From Candidatus Peregrinibacteria bacterium UBA1369 (GTDB taxonomy: Bacteria > Patescibacteriota > Gracilibacteria > UBA1369), in contig DBRL01000014.1 in the NCBI GenBank assembly GCA_002305925.1, positions 34,402-98,401 of the forward strand: a stretch of DNA of 64,000 nucleotides, written 5' to 3'. This document shows, one piece after another, positions 1,445-53,488 of the stretch. Position 1 is the first letter of the stretch; every line of letters begins with the position of its first letter. Under the pieces are notes generated by a model. That model saw nothing but the letters and a program-made list of their open reading frames with translations, was not told where the DNA came from and ran no database searches. The translations under genes and the position numbers were made by a program.

Positions 1445-3346
1445 ATGGAGAAAAAAATCAACAATCTGAGCTGGATGATCGGCGGGGAAGCCGGTGTGGG
1501 CATACAGAGCGCTGGACATTTTTTGGCCCTGCTCTGCTCGCGTGCCGGACTATATGTCTTTGGCAATGCCGAGTACCCTTCACTGATTCGCGGCGGGCAT
1601 AATTCCAATTTGATTCGTGTCGCCGATCAGGAAGTATCGATTCATACCGAGACTGTTAACCTGTTATTGGCGATGAATAAAGAAACCCTGGACCTGCATG
1701 TGGGGGAAATATCAACGGGGGGCGGCGTGATTTATGATGGAGAAACAATTAAGGATTATGATTTTACCGGCCTACGACAAGCTGCCGGGAAGACCGTCGA
1801 GGATATCACAATATTTAACGTACCGCTGAAAAAGTTAGCGATGGAAAAGGGCCAGGGTGAGATCACTCGAAATACGGTGGGGTTGGGGGCCAGTCTGGCT
1901 TTGGTCGGGCTGGATATCAAATATTTGCTGGAGGTTTTGAAAGGCGCTTTTGCCCGCAAGGGAGAGGCAGTGGTGGCACAGAATCTGGCGGCGGCGCAAG
2001 CCGGCTATGATTATATAATAGACAATTTTGGCGGGGAGACGGTGGGGGCTGTGCCTGGCAGCGTTGATTTTGCCTATAAATTAGTACCGGTTGAGCGGCA
2101 ATCAAAACGTATAATTTTGACAGGTAATGAGGCTGTGTGTCTGGGGGCTCTGAAGGCCGGGGTGAAATTTGTGGCCGAATATCCGATGACACCGTCCTCG
2201 ACGGTGCTGCATTTCATGGCCGCGCGGGCCAGGGATTTCAATATAATAGTCAAACATACCGAGGACGAGCTGGCGGCAATAAATATGGTAGTTGGAGCGG
2301 CCTGGGCCGGCGCCCGGGCGATAACCGCGACCTCCGGCGGGGGGTTCGCGCTGATGAGCGAGGCCCTGGGCATGGCCGGGATGATTGAGGCGCCGGCCGT
2401 GATCTACGAAGCGCAGCGCGGAGGGCCGTCCACCGGCCTGCCGACGCGCACCGAACAGAGCGATCTGCGATTTGCCATGCATGCCTCACAGGGCGAGTTT
2501 CCGCGCCTGGTGGTGGCGCCCGGGGATTACCGCGAACTTTTTTACAAAACATTTGAGGCTTTCAATATCGCCGATAAATTTCAGATGCCGGCGGTGATTT
2601 TGAGCGACAAGCACCTGGGGGAAAGCCTGAAAAATATCGAGCCTTTTGAGACGGACGGGCTGCGGGTGGAGCGGGGGAAGCTGGTGACCGACCGGGCCGA
2701 GCTGGAGCGTCTCCTGAAAAACGGTTACGCGACCCCCGATGGCGGATTTCTACGCTATAAAATTGAGAAGGATGGTGTGTCTCCGCGCACATTGCCGGGG
2801 ATGAAAGGCGGTCGGCACCGCGCCTCCACCGATGAACATGACGAGACTGGTGACCTGACCGAAACCCCCGAAAACCGTACCGCCATGCATGCCAAGCGAA
2901 TGCGCAAACTGGAAAGCTGTCTGGCCGCGCTGCCGGCGCCGGAGCTGGTGGGGCCAGGGCTGGAGGGGGCGTACACAGCCGGGCCGGCCTTCGGAGTGGC
3001 CGACGGGCCGGAGGAGAGGAGAGATCCCGCCGACATCACTTTTGTCACCTGGGGATCACCGAAAGACGCTGTACTGGAGGCGATGCAAAAATTGCTGTCG
3101 GAAGGCGTGCGGGCCAACATGTTGCAGATAGTATATTTCGTGCCTTTCCATGCCGATGCCGTGCGGGGAGCGCTGGAGGGTGCACGGGTGAAGGTGGGCG
3201 TGGAAATGAATTATGAAGCGCAGATGGCCGCTTATATTCGTGAAAAAACAGGTGTCGCGCTCGATGCCAATATTCTCAATTGGAGCGGGCGGCAGATGAC
3301 GGCCGAAGAGATTTTGCGGAAGACGGGTGAGATTTTGCGGCGATAA
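1445..3346 (+). CDS. korA: 2-oxoacid:ferredoxin oxidoreductase, alpha subunit (gamma-like domain fused at the N-terminus)
   Basis: 633 aa. N-terminal gamma-type segment (GGEAGVGIQSAGHFLA) followed by an alpha domain (LTGNEAVCLGALKAGVKFVAEYPMTPSS; ATSGGGFALMSEALGMAGMIEAP). Substrate specificity cannot be read from the sequence. Confidence 0.85.
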   Translation: MEKKINNLSWMIGGEAGVGIQSAGHFLALLCSRAGLYVFGNAEYPSLIRGGHNSNLIRVADQEVSIHTETVNLLLAMNKETLDLHVGEISTGGGVIYDGETIKDYDFTGLRQAAGKTVEDITIFNVPLKKLAMEKGQGEITRNTVGLGASLALVGLDIKYLLEVLKGAFARKGEAVVAQNLAAAQAGYDYIIDNFGGETVGAVPGSVDFAYKLVPVERQSKRIILTGNEAVCLGALKAGVKFVAEYPMTPSSTVLHFMAARARDFNIIVKHTEDELAAINMVVGAAWAGARAITATSGGGFALMSEALGMAGMIEAPAVIYEAQRGGPSTGLPTRTEQSDLRFAMHASQGEFPRLVVAPGDYRELFYKTFEAFNIADKFQMPAVILSDKHLGESLKNIEPFETDGLRVERGKLVTDRAELERLLKNGYATPDGGFLRYKIEKDGVSPRTLPGMKGGRHRASTDEHDETGDLTETPENRTAMHAKRMRKLESCLAALPAPELVGPGLEGAYTAGPAFGVADGPEERRDPADITFVTWGSPKDAVLEAMQKLLSEGVRANMLQIVYFVPFHADAVRGALEGARVKVGVEMNYEAQMAAYIREKTGVALDANILNWSGRQMTAEEILRKTGEILRR

Positions 3347-3359
3347 AGTAGTAACAAAG

Positions 3360-3380
3360 AGTCTGCGCGTGCAGACTTTT
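3360..3380 (+). terminator. candidate intrinsic terminator after korA
   Basis: Hairpin AGTCTGC-gcgt-GCAGACT (7 bp stem) followed by TTTT, 14 nt after the korA stop. Confidence 0.45.
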
Positions 3381-3388
3381 GTGCACGG
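3373..3388 (+). repeat. left copy of an imperfect direct repeat flanking the nrd cassette (AGACTTTTGTGCACGG)
   Basis: Matches AGACTTTTGCACGG at 6822-6835 except for a 2-nt TG indel. The two copies lie in the intergenic spacers just after korA and just before korB. Confidence 0.5.
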
Positions 3389-3702: not shown

Positions 3703-3748
3703 ATACTATACCTAGTATTGCCTGAACTTCCAACATACTAGATAATGT
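3703..3748. promoter_or_regulatory. two candidate NrdR-box-like palindromes upstream of nrdD
   Basis: ATACTATACCTAGTAT (3703-3718) and ACATACTAGATAATGT (3733-3748). Each matches about 12/16 positions of the NrdR-box consensus as I recall it (acaCwAtATaTwGtgt). Tandem, 30 bp start to start, 45-90 nt upstream of the nrdD ATG. Confidence 0.4.
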
Positions 3749-3792: not shown

Positions 3793-5610
3793 ATGGCGAT
3801 CGAGGCAAGAGAGACTCTGGAGGAGTATCTCTCAAAGTCGGATTGGCGCGTCAATGCCAATTCGAACCAGGGCTACTCCCTGGGGGGGATGATACTTAAT
3901 ACTTCGGGTAAGGTCACCGCCAATTACTGGCTCTCCTATATATATCCGGAAGAGGTAGGCACGGCCCATCGCGAAGGTGACGTGCACGTGCATGATTTGG
4001 ACATGTTTTCCGGCTACTGTGCCGGCTGGTCGCTGCGTCAGCTCCTGGAGGAAGGCTTCAACGGTATTCCCAATAAAATCGACTCGACCCCGCCCAGAAA
4101 TCTGAACGGGGCAATTGGACAAATGGTCAATTTTCTGGGCACTCTGCAGAACGAGTGGGCTGGGGCCCAGGCCTTTTCTTCCTTCGACACCTATCTGGCC
4201 CCATATGTGCGCAAGTTTTCCGAGGAAATGCGCGAGGAGCTGAAAGACATGGTAATGGATCCGGCCGCCATGGAGCATTATATTGAACAGAAAACCTATA
4301 AATACGTCTACGACTCCATTCAGACCTTTGTTTTCAATTTGAACGTTCCCTCACGCTGGGGCACACAAACGCCTTTTACCAATATTACCCTGGACTGGAC
4401 CTGCCCGCCCGACCTGAAAGAACGCCGGCTGCTCCTGGGAGGGAAACCTTTTAAATACACTTTTGGCGAACTGGAAAAGGAAATGCAGATTATCAACAAA
4501 GCCTATATTGAGGTGATGCTGAAAGGCGACGCCAAGGGCCGCGTTTTTACTTTTCCGATTCCCACCTACAATATCACTCCGGAGTTTGACTGGCACGGGC
4601 CAAATACGGATGTGCTTTTCGAAATGACGGCCAAATACGGCCTGCCCTACTTCCAGAACTTTTTAAATTCCGACCTGAAACCGCAACACGTTCGCTCAAT
4701 GTGCTGCCGCCTGCAGCTGGACCTCAATGAGCTGCTAAAAAGAGGCAACGGCCTCTTTGGTTCAGCAGAAATGACCGGTAGCGTTGGCGTAGTTACGGTC
4801 AACATGGCCCGTTTGGGCTACCTGTTCAAGGGGAATAAAGTAGGCTTTTTTGCCCGCCTGGAGAAGCTGATGGAGCTGGCGAAAATTTCGCTGGAGCTGA
4901 AGAGAAAGGAGATTCAGAAATGGATGGATTTGGGCCTCTACCCCTTTACCAAGCGTTATCTGGGACATCTGAACAATCATTTCTCGACCATTGGATTGAA
5001 CGGTGTCAATGAGGCGATCAAAAACTTCACCGGCGGCGAGGAAGACATTACCACCCAGTTCGGCGGCGATTTCGCAGAAGAAATCCTACTGTTCATGAGA
5101 CAGAAACTGATTCAGTTCCAGGAGGAAACCGGCAATCTCTACAATCTGGAGGCGACGCCGGCGGAGGGGACCACCTATCGCTTCGCCAAAGAGGACAAAA
5201 AGCGCTTTCCCGACATTATTCAATCGGGTTCGCCGGATTATCCCTATTACACCAATTCGACACAGCTGCCGGTGGAATATACCGATGATGTATTTGAAGC
5301 GCTGCAAATGCAGGACCGTTTCCAGACCAAATACACCGGCGGAACCGTGCTGCACCTCTATCTGGGTGAACGCCTGCAGGATGCCGAGAGCTGCCGCCAA
5401 CTGGTGAAGAGGGCCCTGAGCAATTTCCGTCTGCCCTACATCACCATTTCACCAACCTTTTCTATCTGCCCCAAACACGGTTACATCGCCGGGGAACATG
5501 ATTTCTGCCCCCTCTGCGACAAGGAAATCGGCTACCAGGGCGCGGAAAAGATGGATACGGAAACCCGCTCCAAATATATGTCAAAACAAAAAGCCCTATC
5601 ACTTAACTAA
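3793..5610 (+). CDS. nrdD: anaerobic (class III) ribonucleoside-triphosphate reductase, main body, ending at an in-frame TAA before the glycyl-radical motif
   Basis: 605 aa. NrdD hallmarks: YWLSYIYPEEV, HVHDLD, SMCCRLQLD thiyl-radical loop, YYTNSTQLPV, and the first CxxC (CPLC) of the C-terminal Zn ribbon. The RVxGY glycyl-radical motif is missing from this ORF. Confidence 0.9.
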   Translation: MAIEARETLEEYLSKSDWRVNANSNQGYSLGGMILNTSGKVTANYWLSYIYPEEVGTAHREGDVHVHDLDMFSGYCAGWSLRQLLEEGFNGIPNKIDSTPPRNLNGAIGQMVNFLGTLQNEWAGAQAFSSFDTYLAPYVRKFSEEMREELKDMVMDPAAMEHYIEQKTYKYVYDSIQTFVFNLNVPSRWGTQTPFTNITLDWTCPPDLKERRLLLGGKPFKYTFGELEKEMQIINKAYIEVMLKGDAKGRVFTFPIPTYNITPEFDWHGPNTDVLFEMTAKYGLPYFQNFLNSDLKPQHVRSMCCRLQLDLNELLKRGNGLFGSAEMTGSVGVVTVNMARLGYLFKGNKVGFFARLEKLMELAKISLELKRKEIQKWMDLGLYPFTKRYLGHLNNHFSTIGLNGVNEAIKNFTGGEEDITTQFGGDFAEEILLFMRQKLIQFQEETGNLYNLEATPAEGTTYRFAKEDKKRFPDIIQSGSPDYPYYTNSTQLPVEYTDDVFEALQMQDRFQTKYTGGTVLHLYLGERLQDAESCRQLVKRALSNFRLPYITISPTFSICPKHGYIAGEHDFCPLCDKEIGYQGAEKMDTETRSKYMSKQKALSLN

Positions 5611-5619
5611 CAAAAAAAC

Positions 5620-6087
5620 ATGGAACTTTGCGCCAACACCAATTCAGTTTCCAATGAAAACCGCACCAGGTGTGAAATCTGGACCCGCGTGATGGGGTAT
5701 CACCGTCCGGTCAGCCAGTACAATTTCGGTAAAAAATCCGAATTTTATTCGCGCGTCTATTTCCGCGCCACCAACGATGAAAACTCCAAGCTGATCAACC
5801 GCTATGGCGGCTCCCTCTCCGCTACCGCCCCGGCCAAACCGAAACTGCTTCTTTTCACCACCAACACCTGCCCCAAATGCCCTGCTGTTAAATCCTGGAT
5901 GCAGGAAAACCAGGTGGAGTATTTCGGCATCGACAATACCATGCTAAATTTCTGGGAAATTGCCGACAAATACAATGTGCGCAGCGTTCCAACCCTGTTG
6001 GCGGTAGACGAACAGGGTAAGGAAATCTGGCGTGCCAGCGAACTGTCCGAGATTCAGCAGAAGGAGATCGAGCATAAAAACGCCTGA
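5620..6087 (+). CDS. NrdD C-terminal glycyl-radical segment fused to a thioredoxin/NrdH-like domain (same frame as nrdD, 9 nt after its TAA)
   Basis: CEIWTRVMGYHRPVSQYNFGKKSEFYSRVYF is the canonical class III RNR glycyl-radical motif. The C-terminal half has a Trx fold signature (KLLLFTTNTCPKCPAVKSW ... VRSVPTLL). Confidence 0.8.
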   Translation: MELCANTNSVSNENRTRCEIWTRVMGYHRPVSQYNFGKKSEFYSRVYFRATNDENSKLINRYGGSLSATAPAKPKLLLFTTNTCPKCPAVKSWMQENQVEYFGIDNTMLNFWEIADKYNVRSVPTLLAVDEQGKEIWRASELSEIQQKEIEHKNA

Positions 6088-6803
6088 TGATAATCACAGC
6101 CCTGACCAAATTTACGGCGATCGACTTTCCCGGTCGGCTGGCCTGTATTCTTTTTACCGGGGGCTGTAATTTCCGCTGCGGCTTCTGTCACAATGCCGAG
6201 TTTGTGCTGCCGGAAAGGCTGAAAGAATTGACCAATACCATTCCTTTTGAGACGGTGCTAAATTTTCTTTCGGAGCGGCGGGGACTTCTGGACGGGGTCT
6301 CGATTTGCGGCGGGGAGCCGACCATCAATGTCGATCTGCCCGAGAAAATGCGGGAGATCAAAAATCTGGGCTTTCAAATCAAACTGGATACCAATGGCAG
6401 CAATCCGGCGATGCTGGAGAAAATCATTGAGGGCGGGCTGGTGGACTATCTGGCCATGGACATCAAGGACGCGCTGCCCTATCGTAGCGAGTTGGTGGGC
6501 GTGGAAGTGGGGGAGGTTACCCTACGCCAAAGTATCGGGCTGATCAAAAAGGCGGGCGTGGAAAAGGGTATCGAATACGAATTTCGCTCGACCATTCTGC
6601 CGGGTTTTCACGATCTGGAGACCGTGCGAAAAATGGGAGACTCAATTGCCGGTGCCAAAAAGTGGGTGTTGCAGGGGTTTCGTGGTGGCAAGACATTGTC
6701 CGATAGTTTTCGCGATATGCCCAGTTTCTCCACTGATGAACTGAAAGAGATGTCTCAATATCTGACGGTCTATGCCGATAAAGTAGAATTCAGGCCGGCT
6801 TGA
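6087..6803 (+). CDS. nrdG: anaerobic RNR activating protein (radical SAM)
   Basis: 238 aa. CNFRCGFCHN (CX3CX2C) and ICGGEPT. 1-nt TGATG overlap with the preceding ORF. Confidence 0.9.
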   Translation: MIITALTKFTAIDFPGRLACILFTGGCNFRCGFCHNAEFVLPERLKELTNTIPFETVLNFLSERRGLLDGVSICGGEPTINVDLPEKMREIKNLGFQIKLDTNGSNPAMLEKIIEGGLVDYLAMDIKDALPYRSELVGVEVGEVTLRQSIGLIKKAGVEKGIEYEFRSTILPGFHDLETVRKMGDSIAGAKKWVLQGFRGGKTLSDSFRDMPSFSTDELKEMSQYLTVYADKVEFRPA

Positions 6804-6937: not shown

Positions 6938-7798
6938 ATGGTTCAGGATGAAAAAAATTTCAATACGGTTGCCCAGCCCGACTGGTGTCCGGGCTGCGGG
7001 AATTTCGGCATACAGGTGGCGATGAAAAAAGCCTTTACCAATCTGGACCTTGATCCCGACAGCATCGCCGTGATCTCGGATATTGGCTGTAGCGGTAAAA
7101 TGCCGCATTGGCTTAACACCTACGGCCTACACAGTCTGCATGGGCGGGCGGTGGCCGCGGCCAGCGGCGTCAAATTTGCCAATCGAGACCTGCGGGTGCT
7201 GGTGTCGATAGGGGATGGGGGAGCCTATGGGATTGGACTAAATCACCTGCTGCAGGCGATCCGCCGCAATATCGACATGACCGTGCTGGTGCACAATAAT
7301 ATGGTTTATGGCCTGACCAAGGGGCAAATGACGCCGACATCCCGCAAGGGATTCAAAACTCCCTCCTCACCCTTTGGGGCGGTGGAGGAGCCACTGAATC
7401 CAGTGACCATGGCGCTGGCGGCGGGAGGGAGTTTTGTGGCGCGCGGCTACGCGGGAGACGTGCCGCATCTGACCATGCTGATCGAGGAGGGAATCAAACA
7501 TAGTGGTTTTTCGCTAATCGATATTTTTCAACCCTGCGTGACTTTCAACAAAGAGCAGACCTATGCCTATTACCTGAAACAGCTCTATAAGCTTGAAGAA
7601 GAACAGGGCTATGATCGCGGCAACTGGGAGACGGCCATGCAAAAAGCCCGCCAGAATGACCGCTGGCCGGTGGGAATTTTTTATCAGGCCGGACGGCCGA
7701 CCTATGAGGAGGAAGATCCCGGGCGTGCGGAAGTGCCGGCGGTGAAGCTGCCTGTCGAAAATATCGATATTAAGGCCGTGATGGAGCGGTATTTTTAG
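6938..7798 (+). CDS. korB: 2-oxoacid:ferredoxin oxidoreductase, beta (TPP-binding) subunit
   Basis: 286 aa. WCPGCGNFGI and the GDGGAYGIGLNH TPP motif. Confidence 0.9.
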   Translation: MVQDEKNFNTVAQPDWCPGCGNFGIQVAMKKAFTNLDLDPDSIAVISDIGCSGKMPHWLNTYGLHSLHGRAVAAASGVKFANRDLRVLVSIGDGGAYGIGLNHLLQAIRRNIDMTVLVHNNMVYGLTKGQMTPTSRKGFKTPSSPFGAVEEPLNPVTMALAAGGSFVARGYAGDVPHLTMLIEEGIKHSGFSLIDIFQPCVTFNKEQTYAYYLKQLYKLEEEQGYDRGNWETAMQKARQNDRWPVGIFYQAGRPTYEEEDPGRAEVPAVKLPVENIDIKAVMERYF

Positions 7799-25103: not shown

Positions 25104-26036
25104 CTAATTATATTGAGTGTAGGCATCGACGCCACGCAACAATTTTATGGCACTGAGCGCGGCGACGCAACCACTGCCGACGCTGACCGCCACCTGGGCG
25201 GGGGAGCCGGTACAGTCGCCGGCCGCAAAAAGTCCTGGCAGACTGGTGCGCCCTTCACGGTCAATCTTGATCGAGTTGCCCTCCATTTCCAGGCCCAGTT
25301 TTTGTGAAAAAGAATTGGCACCGGCCATGCCGACGGCCATAAAAGCCCCCTCGGCAGACATTTCAACCGTGCCATCGGTAAGCGGCTCGCTGAAAACAAC
25401 TTTTTCCAGTTTATCCTCCCCGCCAAAAGAGGCGATGCGGGGAGTAGTCAGAACGGCAATGCCGGCCTGCCGCAATTTTTCTGCGAAATTAGGCGAAAAA
25501 ACGGGGGGCTTGCCGTGACTCAAAATAGTGACGTTTTTGGTATAGGCAAGCAGTTCGAGGGCTTCGGCCGCGGCGTAATCGGAACTGCCGACAACAACGA
25601 CGGGGCGGTTTTTGAAGAAGAAGCCGTCACAAGTCACGCAATAGGAGACGCCGCGGCCGGTGAATTCTTTTTCTCCGGTAATTCCGGCCAACAGATAACT
25701 CTGGCCGGTGGCAATGATCACCGTCCGGGCCTGCCAGTCCCCCCCGCTATTGTCCTTCAACTCAAACGTGCCGTCCCCGCCGGCGGTCAGGCCGACGATT
25801 TCTTCGGAGCGATGCTCTCCCTTCAGTTCGATCAACTGTTGCTCCGCCGTCTCCAGCAAGGACGAGCCTGAAGGATTGCCGGCAACGCCAAAATAATTGC
25901 CAATCAGATGGGCTTTGTAGAGATTGCCTTTTTCGGCTTGCCCAAAGAGCAATGTTGACAACCCGGCCCTGGCCGTATAAATGGCCGCCGAGTAGCCGGC
26001 GGGCCCAGCCCCGACTATGACAACCTCATAGATCAT
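25104..26036 (-). CDS. trxB: thioredoxin-disulfide reductase
   Basis: VVIVGAGPAGYSAAIYTARAG, redox-active CVTCDG, and a second GxGxxA fold. Confidence 0.9.
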   Translation of the reverse strand: MIYEVVIVGAGPAGYSAAIYTARAGLSTLLFGQAEKGNLYKAHLIGNYFGVAGNPSGSSLLETAEQQLIELKGEHRSEEIVGLTAGGDGTFELKDNSGGDWQARTVIIATGQSYLLAGITGEKEFTGRGVSYCVTCDGFFFKNRPVVVVGSSDYAAAEALELLAYTKNVTILSHGKPPVFSPNFAEKLRQAGIAVLTTPRIASFGGEDKLEKVVFSEPLTDGTVEMSAEGAFMAVGMAGANSFSQKLGLEMEGNSIKIDREGRTSLPGLFAAGDCTGSPAQVAVSVGSGCVAALSAIKLLRGVDAYTQYN

Positions 26037-41302: not shown

Positions 41303-41726
41303 GGGGATGTTACGGCATTCGACACGGATGTTCTTTTACAAACTGCAATCACGGGATGGTACCGTCTCCCGTCAGATCCGCCGGTACAACAATAGATGCA
41401 AATTCTATTAAGATGGCGATGTTGGGTGAGGCCATGAATTTGGCCCCTTCCTACGCTCGGGCAACCGCCTAGAGCTAGCCGATATCCCCGGACCACAAAC
41501 TCCGGGGTCGCAAGCCGACTGACTCCGCTGGGTCGGGCCTTGTGTCATTAGCGGGACGTCACCGGACGGTTTGGAGTTTTGAGACCGGCTGGCGTTACAC
41601 CAAAACCAGGCGAAAGGAGCTTTTGGTCGCGTCCTTATTCCTTTGGCCCAAACAGACGTGACTATGATTGTAGATGTTTGTACCAGTCGTTCGTGGACCC
41701 GGGTTCGACTCCCGGCATCTCCACCA
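41303..41726 (+). ncRNA. ssrA: tmRNA (SsrA)
   Basis: 5' GGGGATGTTACGGCATTCGACACGGATG closely resembles the Bacillus-type ssrA 5' end. 3' GGACCCGGGTTCGACTCCCGGCATCTCCACCA is the T-arm plus acceptor plus CCA. The acceptor stem has a G3:U pair (Ala identity). An internal tag-like ORF ends with tandem in-frame TAG codons. Confidence 0.85.
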
Positions 41727-41786: not shown

Positions 41787-41863
41787 GGGGCTGTAGCTCA
41801 GTTGGCTAGAGCGCTACATTCGCATTGTAGAGGTCGGGAGTTCGACTCTCCTCAGCTCCACCA
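41787..41863 (+). tRNA. tRNA-Ala (anticodon CGC), CCA encoded
   Basis: Cloverleaf folded by hand: acceptor GGGGCTG/CAGCTCC with G3:U70; D stem GCTC/GAGC; anticodon stem CTACA/TGTAG with loop TTCGCAT; T arm GGGAG-TTCGACT-CTCCT. Confidence 0.9.
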
Positions 41864-43443
41864 TAAAGAACTTCTCCCGATTTGGAGGAGTTTTTTAATT
41901 TTCCAGATATCACTTTATCCGCTGTAGGAAAGGCTTTTTTGATGGGGTCACCACCATTTGGTTCGTGGTTCAAGAGCAGTTTTTGACCTTGAATCAAATA
42001 ATTCGCAGCTTTCAGTTTTTCTATCGCAGGAATGGCTTGAATTAGGGCAAATTGACCTTTTAGCTCGCGGTTCGAACTTAAAACATTCAAAACCTTTCTT
42101 TTGACCAAAGGATTCAATTCTCGGTAGCGATAAGGAAGGAAATCGAAGATTTGGATCAGCTCTAAAGTGAGCGCCCAAAGAACATCCTCCTTCATATCCT
42201 CCTTTTCGCCGATTTGAGCGCGCAACGTGTGACGTTGATCAATAAGCTCGTTCTTGCGAGCAAGCCCCTCCTCCGAAGTGAAATAGCCGTCCAGAACAGC
42301 CTTGTTGAGTTTTTCAAGCTGTTGATCGATTTGATTGAGCTTCAAGTCCAAAGCCTTGCGTTTCGCCGCATTGTCGACGCGGATATTCGATGAGAGGCGC
42401 TCGATGGCTTCCTTGGCGTAAGGAATAAACTCATCAGCCAGCTCATACTTAGCAAGAAACGCAACAATTTGGTCTTCAAGACGATCCTCACGGATTGTTT
42501 GGCGGCAATCAGGATTATGACATTCAAGATAAATATGAGTCTTGTGATAAGAAGAGACCATGTAACGACCGCACTCGCATTTAAACATCTTTGAGTAAGT
42601 GAAGTCGTGCTGCATTTTGTTTTTCTGGGTGCGACCGTCCAGAATCTCCTGAACCTGATCAAAAAGCTTCTTCGTGATAAGAGGCTCGTGATTACCCTCG
42701 TAGAATAGTGGCTCATCAGAACCCTTCTTTCTCCACATCATCAGGCCGTGATAAAACGGATTTCTGAGCATTTTATAAAACATGCTTTTGCGGATCGGAT
42801 TACCACTTCCATTAGTCATGCCGCGTTTTCGCATGTACTCACAAAGCGTCATGGCCGAATAATTGCCAGACGCGAACAATTTGAAACTTTCCTTCACAAA
42901 CGGGGCGACTTTCGGGTCGACCTGTTTCTTTTTATGATCGTCATCGACACCCTTGATGCCACTGCGGTAACCAATTGGCGGCGGCGCTGGGAAATAACCC
43001 TTCAAGAGAACTTCCTCCATCTTGGTGCTCACCTCTTCCGAGAGGTTTTCTGAGTACCAGACGGCCATGTTACAAAAATTGCGGAATGCCAAACGGCCAG
43101 CCGCGCGACTAGTATCGAATTCACCCTCAATAACGACCATTTTCTTTTTATGCTGAGTGACCAGCTGGTCGAGCAAAGCAAAATCTGCGACGTTACGGGA
43201 ACTGCGATCTAATTTATGAAAAACAACCCCTTCGATTTCAGGGGATGTTAAACGTTGCAACATTTTGTGAAACTCCGTGCGCTTTCCCTTGAAGCCAGAC
43301 TTGGCTTCGGAAAACCAATCGACTATTTCAAACTCCTTGCGCTGAGCGTACTCAGTGATGATGCGTTTTTGAGCAGGCAGCGAATTGTCCATGTCGGCCT
43401 GCGCTTTTGTTGATACACGGCAATAAGCTACATACTTTTTCAT
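41806..43443 (-). CDS. large serine recombinase (phage integrase)
   Basis: Resolvase catalytic domain (YCRVSTKAQ...SLPAQ), recombinase domain, zinc ribbon (CECGRYMVSSYHKTHIYLECHNPDC) and coiled coil. The last ~19 codons are antisense to tRNA-Ala. Confidence 0.9.
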   Translation of the reverse strand: MKKYVAYCRVSTKAQADMDNSLPAQKRIITEYAQRKEFEIVDWFSEAKSGFKGKRTEFHKMLQRLTSPEIEGVVFHKLDRSSRNVADFALLDQLVTQHKKKMVVIEGEFDTSRAAGRLAFRNFCNMAVWYSENLSEEVSTKMEEVLLKGYFPAPPPIGYRSGIKGVDDDHKKKQVDPKVAPFVKESFKLFASGNYSAMTLCEYMRKRGMTNGSGNPIRKSMFYKMLRNPFYHGLMMWRKKGSDEPLFYEGNHEPLITKKLFDQVQEILDGRTQKNKMQHDFTYSKMFKCECGRYMVSSYHKTHIYLECHNPDCRQTIREDRLEDQIVAFLAKYELADEFIPYAKEAIERLSSNIRVDNAAKRKALDLKLNQIDQQLEKLNKAVLDGYFTSEEGLARKNELIDQRHTLRAQIGEKEDMKEDVLWALTLELIQIFDFLPYRYRELNPLVKRKVLNVLSSNRELKGQFALIQAIPAIEKLKAANYLIQGQKLLLNHEPNGGDPIKKAFPTADKVISGKLKNSSKSGEVLYGGAEESRTPDLYNANVAL

Positions 43444-51758: not shown

Positions 51759-52109
51759 ATGCAAGGCAAGAAAACCACAATTCGAGACAAAAAACGGTTC
51801 CTTGAGGCGCTGCAACGCCGCAAAGGGATCGTTACGCTTGCCTGCAAGGAAGTGGGCATAAGCTCGATGACCTTTTACCGATGGCAAAAGGACGATCCTG
51901 ATTTTTACGAGAAGTCTGAGGAAATCCGATACGTCGAAATCGGAATTATCGCCGAAGACAGATTAGCGGAAGCCATCATCGTAAACAAAGACATGAACAT
52001 GGTGCGTTTCTACCTGCAGACCAGAAACCACAAATACATGATGAAGCAGCAACTCCAGTTTGAAGACCCGACTGCAGAACTCGCCAAACTCTTATCACAA
52101 GAAGAATGA
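51759..52109 (+). CDS. terminase small subunit (HTH)
   Basis: 116 aa. LACKEVGISSMTFYRWQKDDPDF. Overlaps the large subunit start. Confidence 0.65.
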   Translation: MQGKKTTIRDKKRFLEALQRRKGIVTLACKEVGISSMTFYRWQKDDPDFYEKSEEIRYVEIGIIAEDRLAEAIIVNKDMNMVRFYLQTRNHKYMMKQQLQFEDPTAELAKLLSQEE

Positions 52110-53488
52110 TCATAGACCTGCCAAAAACATATCGCGGGCTGAACTTGTTTGGGGAGAAATACTTCAAACGGCCGTTCACGGAATACCAACGGACAATCGC
52201 CGAGCAGATTCTCCGCACTGTTTTTGTTGGCGGCGGTGAAGAGGTATTTATCGAAGTATCAAGGCAAGCAGGAAAAACAACCGCTGTCGTGGACGCGATC
52301 GCATATCTCATGACGTTCGCACACCACTTCTTCCCAACACCCTTATCCATCGGCATATTCGCTCCTCAAAAAGAACAGGCGAAGACGGACTTCGACAGAC
52401 TCAAAGATAACCTGAGAATCCTGAAAGAAGTCTTCCGTCTCGACTTCGAAGAATCAAATGGGACAACGCTAAAACTTGGAAACGGCAATGTCATTTACTG
52501 TTTCTCGCTGGCTCCAACCTCGCACCTTGAAAGTAAATCGCTCCATTTGGCCGTGATTGAAGAGGCTCAAAAGATTGATGACGAGAAAGCCAAAAATGAA
52601 GTATTTCCAATGCTCGCTTCAACCAATGGCAGCAAGATATTCATCGGCTCTGGCGGATATCAGCTGTGCAATTTTTACCGAGGAATCGAGAACAACAAAA
52701 ACGTCTTCAAGTACGACTACAAGCGAGTGATTGCCGATAAAGAAAAACTGCATGCAAAAACCAAGAATCCGCTGCACCTCAAATACAAGGACTTCATCGA
52801 AGGCGAAAAGGAACGCTACCGCGAAGACAGCGACTACTTCCAGACACAGTATGCGCTGGAATGGAAGATCGGACGCGGAATGCTCGTGACCAAGACGGAA
52901 CTGGAAAAACTGGGACGCAAATACATCGTCAAGCTGCCATACGAAAATCCAGTCTATGTCGGCTGGGACGTGGCCAAGGAGCAGGACGAAAGCGTGGTCA
53001 CGGTGATCGGCTGGGATGAAGAACTGAAAAAGTACAAGGTGCTGTGCTGGCTTGCGATGAAGGGTGACGACTATACCGAACAGGTGGAAATCGTGGCGAA
53101 GGAACTTACTAAATTTAAGCACGTCATGAAGGTGTGCATCGATGCGACAGGCGTCGGCGATCCCGTGGTCGACAACTTCAAAAAACAGACCAGATACAAC
53201 ACCGAACCCGTGAAATTCAGTCTGCAAAACAAGGACACGCTCTACAAGAACCTTATCAAAGTCCTGCGCGACGAAGAACTCGCGTACCAAGAAGACCACA
53301 AATACACACCGAAATTCGAAAACCAAATGCTTGAAATGATCAAGGAATACAAGGGCGAATTCCTGTCCTGCCATCACCCAGACAAAGCGGGGGCGCATGA
53401 CGACTTTCCCGACTCACTCGCCCTCGCACTGTACAAGGCAAGAAAAATCACCGACGTGAACCTCAACCGTCACGATCTCGGACTTTAA
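52106..53488 (+). CDS. terminase large subunit
   Basis: Walker A VSRQAGKTTAV, Walker B LAVIEEAQ, and C-terminal RNase-H-like acidic residues (GWDVAKEQDESV; CIDATGVGD; AHDDFPDSL). Confidence 0.8.
   Translation: MIIDLPKTYRGLNLFGEKYFKRPFTEYQRTIAEQILRTVFVGGGEEVFIEVSRQAGKTTAVVDAIAYLMTFAHHFFPTPLSIGIFAPQKEQAKTDFDRLKDNLRILKEVFRLDFEESNGTTLKLGNGNVIYCFSLAPTSHLESKSLHLAVIEEAQKIDDEKAKNEVFPMLASTNGSKIFIGSGGYQLCNFYRGIENNKNVFKYDYKRVIADKEKLHAKTKNPLHLKYKDFIEGEKERYREDSDYFQTQYALEWKIGRGMLVTKTELEKLGRKYIVKLPYENPVYVGWDVAKEQDESVVTVIGWDEELKKYKVLCWLAMKGDDYTEQVEIVAKELTKFKHVMKVCIDATGVGDPVVDNFKKQTRYNTEPVKFSLQNKDTLYKNLIKVLRDEELAYQEDHKYTPKFENQMLEMIKEYKGEFLSCHHPDKAGAHDDFPDSLALALYKARKITDVNLNRHDLGL

Follow-up and report, generated by a model that had tools for sequence, protein, structure and literature searches.

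The 64,000-nucleotide stretch of Candidatus Peregrinibacteria bacterium UBA1369 analysed here (contig DBRL01000014.1; hereafter the window, whose numbering is used for all coordinates) very probably encodes a two-gene, heteromeric class III (anaerobic) ribonucleotide reductase (RNR), in which the radical glycine is carried by a separately initiated small subunit. The nrdD body, or large subunit, spans positions 3793..5610 of the forward strand and comprises 605 residues with the catalytic barrel and the Zn ribbon, ending at a TAA stop codon (5608-5610). The ATG of the small-subunit gene (5620..6087, forward strand; 155 residues) follows 9 nt past this stop, in the frame of the body, and the gene closes with a TGA (6085-6087) that shares one nucleotide with the next gene, the A of TGA being the first base of the nrdG ATG. 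The latter gene (6087..6803, forward strand; 238 residues) encodes the radical S-adenosylmethionine (SAM) activase and is of NrdG2 type (TIGR02495, 181 bits for a cut-off of 131). A first-pass annotation, made from the sequence alone, had described the 605-residue body and the in-frame 155-residue open reading frame (ORF) with its glycyl-radical motif and CPKC domain, and the sequence is as it stated. As possible causes, it had named a nonsense mutation or assembly error, stop-codon readthrough, and a true two-piece enzyme whose glycyl-radical subunit is detached. The last of these is strongly supported by the conservation of the split across relatives, so that what had been presented as the oddity of one gene is instead a widespread architecture. 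The locus is an unexceptional representative of a two-subunit form of class III RNR that is large and, as far as can be told, undescribed. From the gene layout, the small subunit is predicted to be translationally coupled to the upstream body and the downstream nrdG, and the spacing places the TAA in frame by chance.

The small protein is present in identical form on 20 contigs, and the junction (5596..5619, forward strand), in which the TAA stop is embedded in CACTTAACTAACAAAAAAAC, is identical in L088, an independent assembly and sample. In relatives, the small ORF likewise lies between an NrdD body of ~605 residues and nrdG, with junctions that vary in length and frame: TAA plus 1 nt (frame +1) in L003, plus 5 nt (frame +2) in L089, plus 19 nt (frame +1) in L001, and plus 39 nt (in frame) in L005. 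When one genome was scanned for each GTDB species, 80 loci were obtained, and in 78 of them a body 60-81% identical to that of the window was found by tblastn directly 5' of the tail. Junctions were scored in 77 loci, comprising the automatically parsed GTDB genome loci, the metagenome relatives and the window itself, by means of tblastn frames and manual reading, as a plain count of the residues upstream within the ORF was misleading in high-GC genomes, where wrong frames are open. Eleven high-GC loci had no automatically assigned start; hand reading of two of these showed a split, with Shine-Dalgarno sites. The first-pass annotation had asked whether the stop is conserved in orthologous nrdD loci. 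A break just past the Zn ribbon is found in all 77, closed by TAA in 47, by TGA in 25 and by TAG in five. The second ORF lies in frame 0, 1 or 2 relative to the first in 22, 27 and 28 loci, respectively; the spacers have a median of 26 nt, and at several junctions the two ORFs overlap as ATGA. This uniform frame distribution is that expected of independent neighbouring cistrons and is incompatible with either readthrough or a recent nonsense mutation.

The idea that a single nrdD-trx fusion gene was recently interrupted by a nonsense mutation, or by a sequencing or assembly error, would make the locus a pseudogene or an artefact. It could draw on the lone in-frame TAA and on the existence of rare fused relatives (P0308, P0355 and P0373), but the small protein recurs unchanged on 20 contigs, its junction is preserved in L088, and every relative examined is split, with varied spacers and frames. 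In addition, the ratio of nonsynonymous to synonymous substitutions (dN/dS) relative to L088 amounts to 0.011 (body) and 0.032 (small subunit) at a dS of about 1; relative to L089, it is 0.030 and 0.107, respectively. Strong purifying selection acts on both genes. The small ORF also possesses its own ATG and a leader typical of the genome, and we consider that mutation or error has next to no likelihood. With regard to these leaders, Shine-Dalgarno-like motifs were found 5' of three of the 45 window genes (16% expected by chance) and a TAA was found in the leader of 30 of the 45 (14% expected at random). Window leaders are A-rich and G-poor (12% G), with a TAA/TTAAC motif ~8-15 nt upstream of the start, as before the genes at 1445, 3793, 5620, 6938 and 27595. 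The leader of the small ORF, CACTTAACTAACAAAAAAAC, fits this non-Shine-Dalgarno pattern, and the stop codon of the body is part of the motif. The TAAC motif was also seen in many relatives from the candidate phyla radiation (CPR) among the scored junctions.

Programmed readthrough or another recoding event at TAA-CAAAAAAAC would instead generate one chain of 763 residues. The two ORFs of the window are in frame with no further stop between them, the stop context is A-rich, and the fused relatives show that the linker tolerates continuity. However, the frame is not kept: in L089, whose body is 91% identical, the small ORF is already in frame +2, in L001 and L003 it is in frame +1, and the three frames are about evenly populated overall. 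Stops of all three kinds occur, several junctions overlap as ATGA, and an Rfam search over the whole window revealed no family at the junction. Readthrough as the mode of expression, as considered by the first-pass annotation, is thus very unlikely. An alternative genetic code in which TGA is read as Gly (code 25) was also considered and rejected, as the stop is TAA here and the ORFs of relatives close properly under code 11.

The same picture emerged from the protein level, where 117 of the 120 best body homologues (70-91% identity) end 19-55 residues past the Zn knuckle and have no glycine motif. The remaining three, which are the fused proteins mentioned above, fall into two groups, each with split nearest neighbours, and in them the body extension runs on into the small-subunit leader to form an uninterrupted linker. 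Split and fused states appear to interconvert, without removal of the linker. This retention also bears on the proposal that the two products are ligated after translation by a split intein (protein trans-splicing), or that the transcripts are spliced. Inteins and group I introns are classically found in RNR genes (PMC3653736), and the break is found at a domain boundary, but the extension of the body (~20-55 residues) and the leader of the small subunit (~8-50 residues) are short, variable and devoid of intein domain matches. Further, a spacer of 9 nt is too small for an intron, and Rfam finds nothing there. Ligation or splicing is therefore extremely unlikely.

The split is not restricted to uncultured lineages. 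Reading by eye revealed it in the cultured isolates Halomonas socia (complete genome), H. halodenitrificans, Pseudomonas mangrovi and Duganella margarita, in which the body stops 10-25 residues past the CPKC knuckle and is followed by a Shine-Dalgarno site and an ORF of 49-58 residues with the form M...ERQRCE[IV]WTRVMGYHRPVS.FN.GK..EH.ER..F. In RefSeq, the small proteins of these isolates bear the name 'anaerobic ribonucleoside-triphosphate reductase'. A profile of the short tail matched at least 8000 clusters (90% identity) of tail-only proteins of 50-110 residues, and 50%-identity representatives, searched exhaustively, contributed 835 matches below 1e-10, the best 150 of which were almost all short proteins. 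Most split systems of Proteobacteria have no redoxin in the operon.

The body is assigned to the anaerobic RNR family by Pfam NRDD (PF13597; 578 bits, model positions 2-529 of 562), NCBIfam PRK08270 (982 bits for a cut-off of 548, model positions 99-652 of 684) and TIGR02487 (449 bits for a cut-off of 326). It has neither an ATP-cone nor a glycyl-radical loop, the RVxGY motif being located on the separate 155-residue ORF. No second nrdD was found in the 64,000-nt window. The N-terminal ATP-cone is lost in the Peregrinibacteria bodies P0275-P0297 (78-91% identity, ~605 residues) and kept in the next-closest split bodies, from P0298 onward (70-75% identity, ~705-720 residues).

Alignment to the NrdD from Thermotoga maritima provided the putative active-site residues, all encoded on the forward strand. 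Cys76, the conserved β-A cysteine (4018..4020), aligns with T. maritima Cys125, whose role is described in PMC4493059. The finger loop M303-C304-C305-R306 (4699..4710), which is of the double-cysteine type, aligns with SCCR at 328-331 (motif classes according to PMC9669993), and Glu453 (5149..5151) aligns with Glu495, the proposed proton donor of redoxin-dependent NrdD (T. maritima Q9WYL6; PMC9669993). A third cysteine together with the glutamate is the defining pattern of redoxin-dependent NrdD2 in the classification of Wei et al., as summarised in PMC4493059, and the body possesses this set in C304-C305 and Glu453. The presence of these residues, which the first-pass annotation had proposed to look for, agrees with its suggestion of thioredoxin-type chemistry, as the MCCR finger loop, Glu453 and Cys76 are all in place.

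The metal site was the point on which that annotation was probably wrong. It had placed one CxxC of the Zn site upstream of the stop and two further cysteines downstream, so that the site would have to assemble across the break. In T. maritima NrdD, Zn is bound by CxxxHx6CxxC (PMC4493059). The knuckles C559-P-K-H562 and C572-P-L-C575 of the body (5467..5517, forward strand) reproduce this Cys/His/Cys/Cys set with other spacing (C559-x2-H562-x9-C572-x2-C575), and these four residues do not vary among 58 aligned bodies. Because all four putative ligands are within the body, upstream of the stop, the metal site probably does not extend over the break. Concerning the two downstream cysteines, Cys18 (5671-5673, forward strand), within RCEIW, is conserved in the clade, but Cys4 is not. 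Cys18 is unlikely to be a Zn ligand, since it is missing from other split lineages, such as those with Spirochaetia-type tails, TEVYTRIVGYYR, and from some phage tails. The body ends 30 residues past the Zn ribbon with a clade-specific C-terminal extension (residues 576-605, DKEIGYQGAEKMDTETRSKYMSKQKALSLN; 5518..5607, forward strand), which was delineated from the C-termini of 117 split bodies, shows the conserved pattern D.E[IL]G[YF].G...D.E.R.K[HY].S, and is missing in the short-linker fused relative P0087.

The small ORF is laid out as a variable leader (residues 1-14), a glycyl-radical tail (15-48), a helix and linker (39-72) and a thioredoxin-fold domain (73-155). It matches positions 529-562 of the NRDD model, which is exactly the piece absent from the body (RVMGYHRPVSQYNFGKKSEFYSRVYF, residues 23-48), and the radical glycine would be Gly26 within RVMGY (5695-5697, forward strand). 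The pyruvate formate-lyase (PFL)-type radical family Gly_radical (PF01228) was not matched, as a Pfam scan of the small ORF at E <= 0.01 returned NRDD and thioredoxin-fold families only. The redoxin domain (5836..6084, forward strand) contains CPKC at residues 84-87 (5869-5880) and the cis-proline motif SVPT (5983-5994), and its residues 72-136 match Glutaredoxin (PF00462), Thioredoxin_2 (PF13098) and Thioredoxin_3 (PF13192). Its best NCBIfam matches, a YruB-type model (26.8 bits) and an MJ0307-type model (20.4 bits), are both far under the cut-off; there is no NrdH model among the NCBIfam matches, and the motif is CPKC, not of the CVQC type. Prediction of the small subunit alone with AlphaFold2 (AF2) yielded a minimal thioredoxin fold for residues 73-155 with a predicted local distance difference test (pLDDT) score of ~85, a helix for residues 39-62 and a disordered glycine loop. 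Foldseek related the redoxin fold to thioredoxins, BC3987 and cGrx1 with a probability of 1.00.

The small ORF's ~40 closest homologues (46-94% identity) all have 129-163 residues, combine tail and redoxin, and start a few residues ahead of a conserved R-T-K/R-C-E-I-W-T-R-V-M-G-Y; within this family, C84, C87, P124 and T125 are invariant. The fusion to a thioredoxin-like domain, whose conservation had been raised as a check, is thus kept among these proteins but not in the nearest outgroups, L018, L059 and L047 (71-72% body identity), in which the redoxin is a separate gene. These loci encode a body, a small subunit of 58-76 residues, a separate TCPKCP redoxin of 81-88 residues and nrdG. Because tail and redoxin are adjacent genes there, the small protein of the window is most simply explained as a lineage-specific fusion of two neighbouring genes. 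A redoxin of the same type is found at the C-terminus of the unsplit NrdDs P0170, P0176 and P0179 and is also fused to small subunits with a different type of tail, TEVYTRIVGYYR.

Two related arrangements were observed alongside these. The cluster in Spirochaetia metagenome-assembled genomes (MAGs) comprises nrdR, a body of 703 residues, a tail-thioredoxin protein of 168 residues with this other type of tail, and nrdG. In the Spirochaetia MAG locus L171 (4120-4300), the extension of the body, EQEDMLKSRIAALEKEKAELQAVNA, and the leader of the small subunit, VEAIDREIAECKEELTNVKG, both look like amphipathic helices, which might form a coiled coil tethering the subunits; the extension and leader of the window are unlike these. 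Separately, P0200 (255 residues), retrieved by the search of representatives, unites a glycyl-radical tail, a thioredoxin-like domain and an NrdG-like N-terminal CxxxCxxC region in one chain, and may be a fusion of substrate and activase or a gene-calling artefact on a short contig.

By analogy with single-chain NrdD, the tail of the small subunit would insert non-covalently into the barrel of the large subunit in the manner of the C-terminal loop. NrdG would install the radical on the small subunit, possibly while the latter is free, as the PFL activase does with GrcA. The CPKC domain, tethered by the helix and linker, could then re-reduce the disulfide formed between Cys76 and Cys304/305 after each turnover, and would itself be re-reduced by an enzyme of the thioredoxin-reductase type. 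A candidate is the thioredoxin-reductase-like flavoprotein encoded on the reverse strand at 25104..26036 (PF07992, 143 bits; TIGR01292, 246 bits over the full length, short of the equivalog cut-off of 343). A small subunit damaged by oxygen would be replaceable, so that a 17-kDa part could be swapped without remaking the 70-kDa body.

Within a genuine two-subunit enzyme, the redoxin might serve not as the reductant for turnover but to sense redox state or oxygen, to assist radical installation as a chaperone, or to provide a docking site for NrdG. The methionine of MCCR also fits formate-dependent reduction (PMC9669993), the family scores of the domain are modest, and most proteobacterial split systems do without an operon redoxin. 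Against this, the CxxC and the cis-proline are invariant in the family, the third cysteine and the glutamate for redoxin-dependent chemistry are present, and homologous TCPxCP redoxins recur with nrdD in three guises: encoded separately in the operon, joined to the C-terminus of full-length NrdD, and attached to the small subunit. We therefore regard such an alternative role as rather unlikely.

Several observations weigh against a two-subunit enzyme with a built-in reductant and are collected here. The redoxin domain exceeds the cut-off of its three Pfam families with 23.9-29.1 bits only, and no NCBIfam equivalog was matched by it. According to Burnim et al. (PMC9669993), a finger-loop methionine would permit the use of formate too, so Met303 of the body is also compatible with formate, and the reductant is one that we infer from aligned residues. 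As a proxy for the complex, an AF2 prediction of the fused homologue P0308 (alignment A3) was confident for the body, but the linker and tail (residues 712-776) had pLDDT values < 50. Three of the 120 proteins are fused, which shows that one chain can function as well and that the split may be close to neutral under selection and not adaptive. Finally, a trace of readthrough product may occur in the window, the ORFs being in frame there.

Comparison with described systems sets this enzyme, which we consider to be composed of two subunits, apart from each of them. It shares the family (PF13597/TIGR02487/PRK08270) with the single-chain NrdD plus NrdG systems of phage T4, E. coli, T. maritima (4COI/4U3E) and N. 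bacilliformis, as well as the β-A cysteine, the finger-loop cysteines, the Zn ribbon, the RVxGY motif and the adjacent radical-SAM activase. In contrast to these, its glycine loop is on its own polypeptide with its own start, the body has a 30-residue extension, the lineage lacks the ATP-cone, and the glycine loop is followed by a fused redoxin. GrcA/YfiD and phage T4 Y06I resemble the small subunit in consisting only of a C-terminal radical domain that stands alone, with presumed activation by the cognate activase and action in trans, and phage-encoded copies are common to both groups. However, GrcA has a PFL-type radical domain instead of an NrdD tail, and it rescues a full-length PFL that has a radical domain of its own, whereas the large subunit of the window has none, which would make the small protein obligatory.

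Catalytic subunits made from two consecutive ORFs are also found in the class II NrdJa/NrdJb of Pseudomonas aeruginosa and in NrdA-a/NrdA-b of Aeromonas phage Aeh1, which differ from the window in RNR class and in break point. In these, the halves must assemble non-covalently, and the split is not known to isolate the radical-bearing element. Described split RNRs include class II NrdJa/b (PMC9669993, ref 43) and phage genes broken by introns, inteins and homing endonucleases (PMC3653736). A dedicated thioredoxin-fold reductant covalently attached to an RNR subunit, as in the window, is found in the Grx-ATP-cone-NrdB of Facklamia ignava and in one grx::nrdD fusion, of Lachnospiraceae TWA4, which was retrieved by a RefSeq search (PMC6187632). 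The window differs from these in that the redoxin, a minimal thioredoxin fold with CPKC, is on the detached radical subunit and not on the catalytic chain. A dedicated small redoxin encoded within a class III RNR cluster is likewise seen in Methanosarcina barkeri, where NrdD3 is accompanied by an operon-encoded NrdH-like redoxin and is not known to be split. NrdD3 has no such glutamate and a QCCR motif (PMC9669993), and the window differs from it by MCCR plus Glu and by the split. We found no description in the literature of a cellular NrdD with the glycine loop as a separate gene, although most subscription journals were outside the coverage and a prior mention is possible. NCBIfam contains no model for the small subunit, and the proteins themselves are already in RefSeq.

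Small-subunit genes were also sought in viral sequences. A scan gave 263 stretches, and the best 80 loci were examined. Viral contigs of IMG/VR (L006, 5001-5270; L007, 5001-5261; L091-L170) carry orphan small-subunit genes of 49-110 residues with the form M..ER[TQ][RKP]CE[IV]WTRVMGYHRPVS.FN.GK.... In 79 of the best 80 loci, neither an NrdD body nor nrdG lies within 6 kb; at least 2.5 kb of upstream sequence is available for 59 of these 79. The neighbours include terminase, portal and capsid genes, and some copies bear a Cys-rich N-terminal extension or a C-terminal CC patch. Genomes of isolate phages gave no match to the phage-type tail by tblastn. The presence of orphan small subunits on viral contigs argues that the tail works in trans, and the viral orphans may serve phages as 'spare parts' in hosts that have the split enzyme.

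Upstream of nrdD, a weak sigma-70-like promoter was predicted from a consensus match only (3718..3746, forward strand), and a terminator-like hairpin is found downstream of korA (3368-3387); no terminator-like sites were seen between the body, the small-subunit gene and nrdG. The nrd cluster is bracketed by korA, for the alpha/gamma chain of a 2-oxoacid:ferredoxin oxidoreductase (1445..3346, forward strand; supported by called genes and Pfam families in L003, L088 and L089), and korB, for the beta chain (6938-7798). This synteny is kept in the same three relatives, and the order YqeY-korA-nrdD-small-nrdG-korB-GDPD is common to the window, L088 and L089. The kor genes around the cluster may link ferredoxin reduction to the RNR electron supply or may reflect a mere conserved insertion.

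Elsewhere in the window, positions 41303-64000 correspond to a prophage-like element beside the genes for a transfer-messenger RNA (41303-41726) and a tRNA (41787-41860). It encodes a serine recombinase (41806-43443, reverse strand), a large terminase (52106-53488), RecT, a MetK-like SAM synthetase, a PD-(D/E)XK nuclease, a ParB-N6 methylase, a second methylase and a ResIII helicase. The GC fraction drops from ~0.54 to 0.40-0.47, and the AT skew reaches 0.2-0.25. This region is an integrated phage in a CPR genome.

Glycyl radical enzymes have been described as single chains, in which the C-terminal domain must swing out to reach the activase. To our knowledge, PFL alone makes use of a separate radical domain, which serves there for repair only. 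A June 2026 review restricts the known spare-part proteins to formate lyases and leaves their existence for other glycyl radical enzymes undetermined (PMC13450708), a question on which the split NrdD bears directly. A large natural family of split RNRs also offers a ready system to study radical installation, docking and oxygen damage in trans, and suggests a new class of phage auxiliary genes. In annotation, bodies of ~600-720 residues are called complete NrdD, and their partners of 50-160 residues are often labelled 'hypothetical'. In the redoxin fusion of the window, radical supply and electron supply would be joined in one small protein.

We tentatively put forward a further possibility, to which we lend somewhat less than even credence: that the small subunit is a diffusible and exchangeable radical carrier, which would be charged by NrdG off the enzyme, dock into the radical-less barrel and be swapped after cleavage by oxygen. 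Phages with orphan copies would then re-arm or take over the large subunit of the host, and the carrier of Peregrinibacteria would also deliver reducing equivalents through its redoxin. If this is true, class III RNR would be a holoenzyme with a replaceable protein cofactor, and the first 'spare-part' system outside pyruvate formate-lyase.

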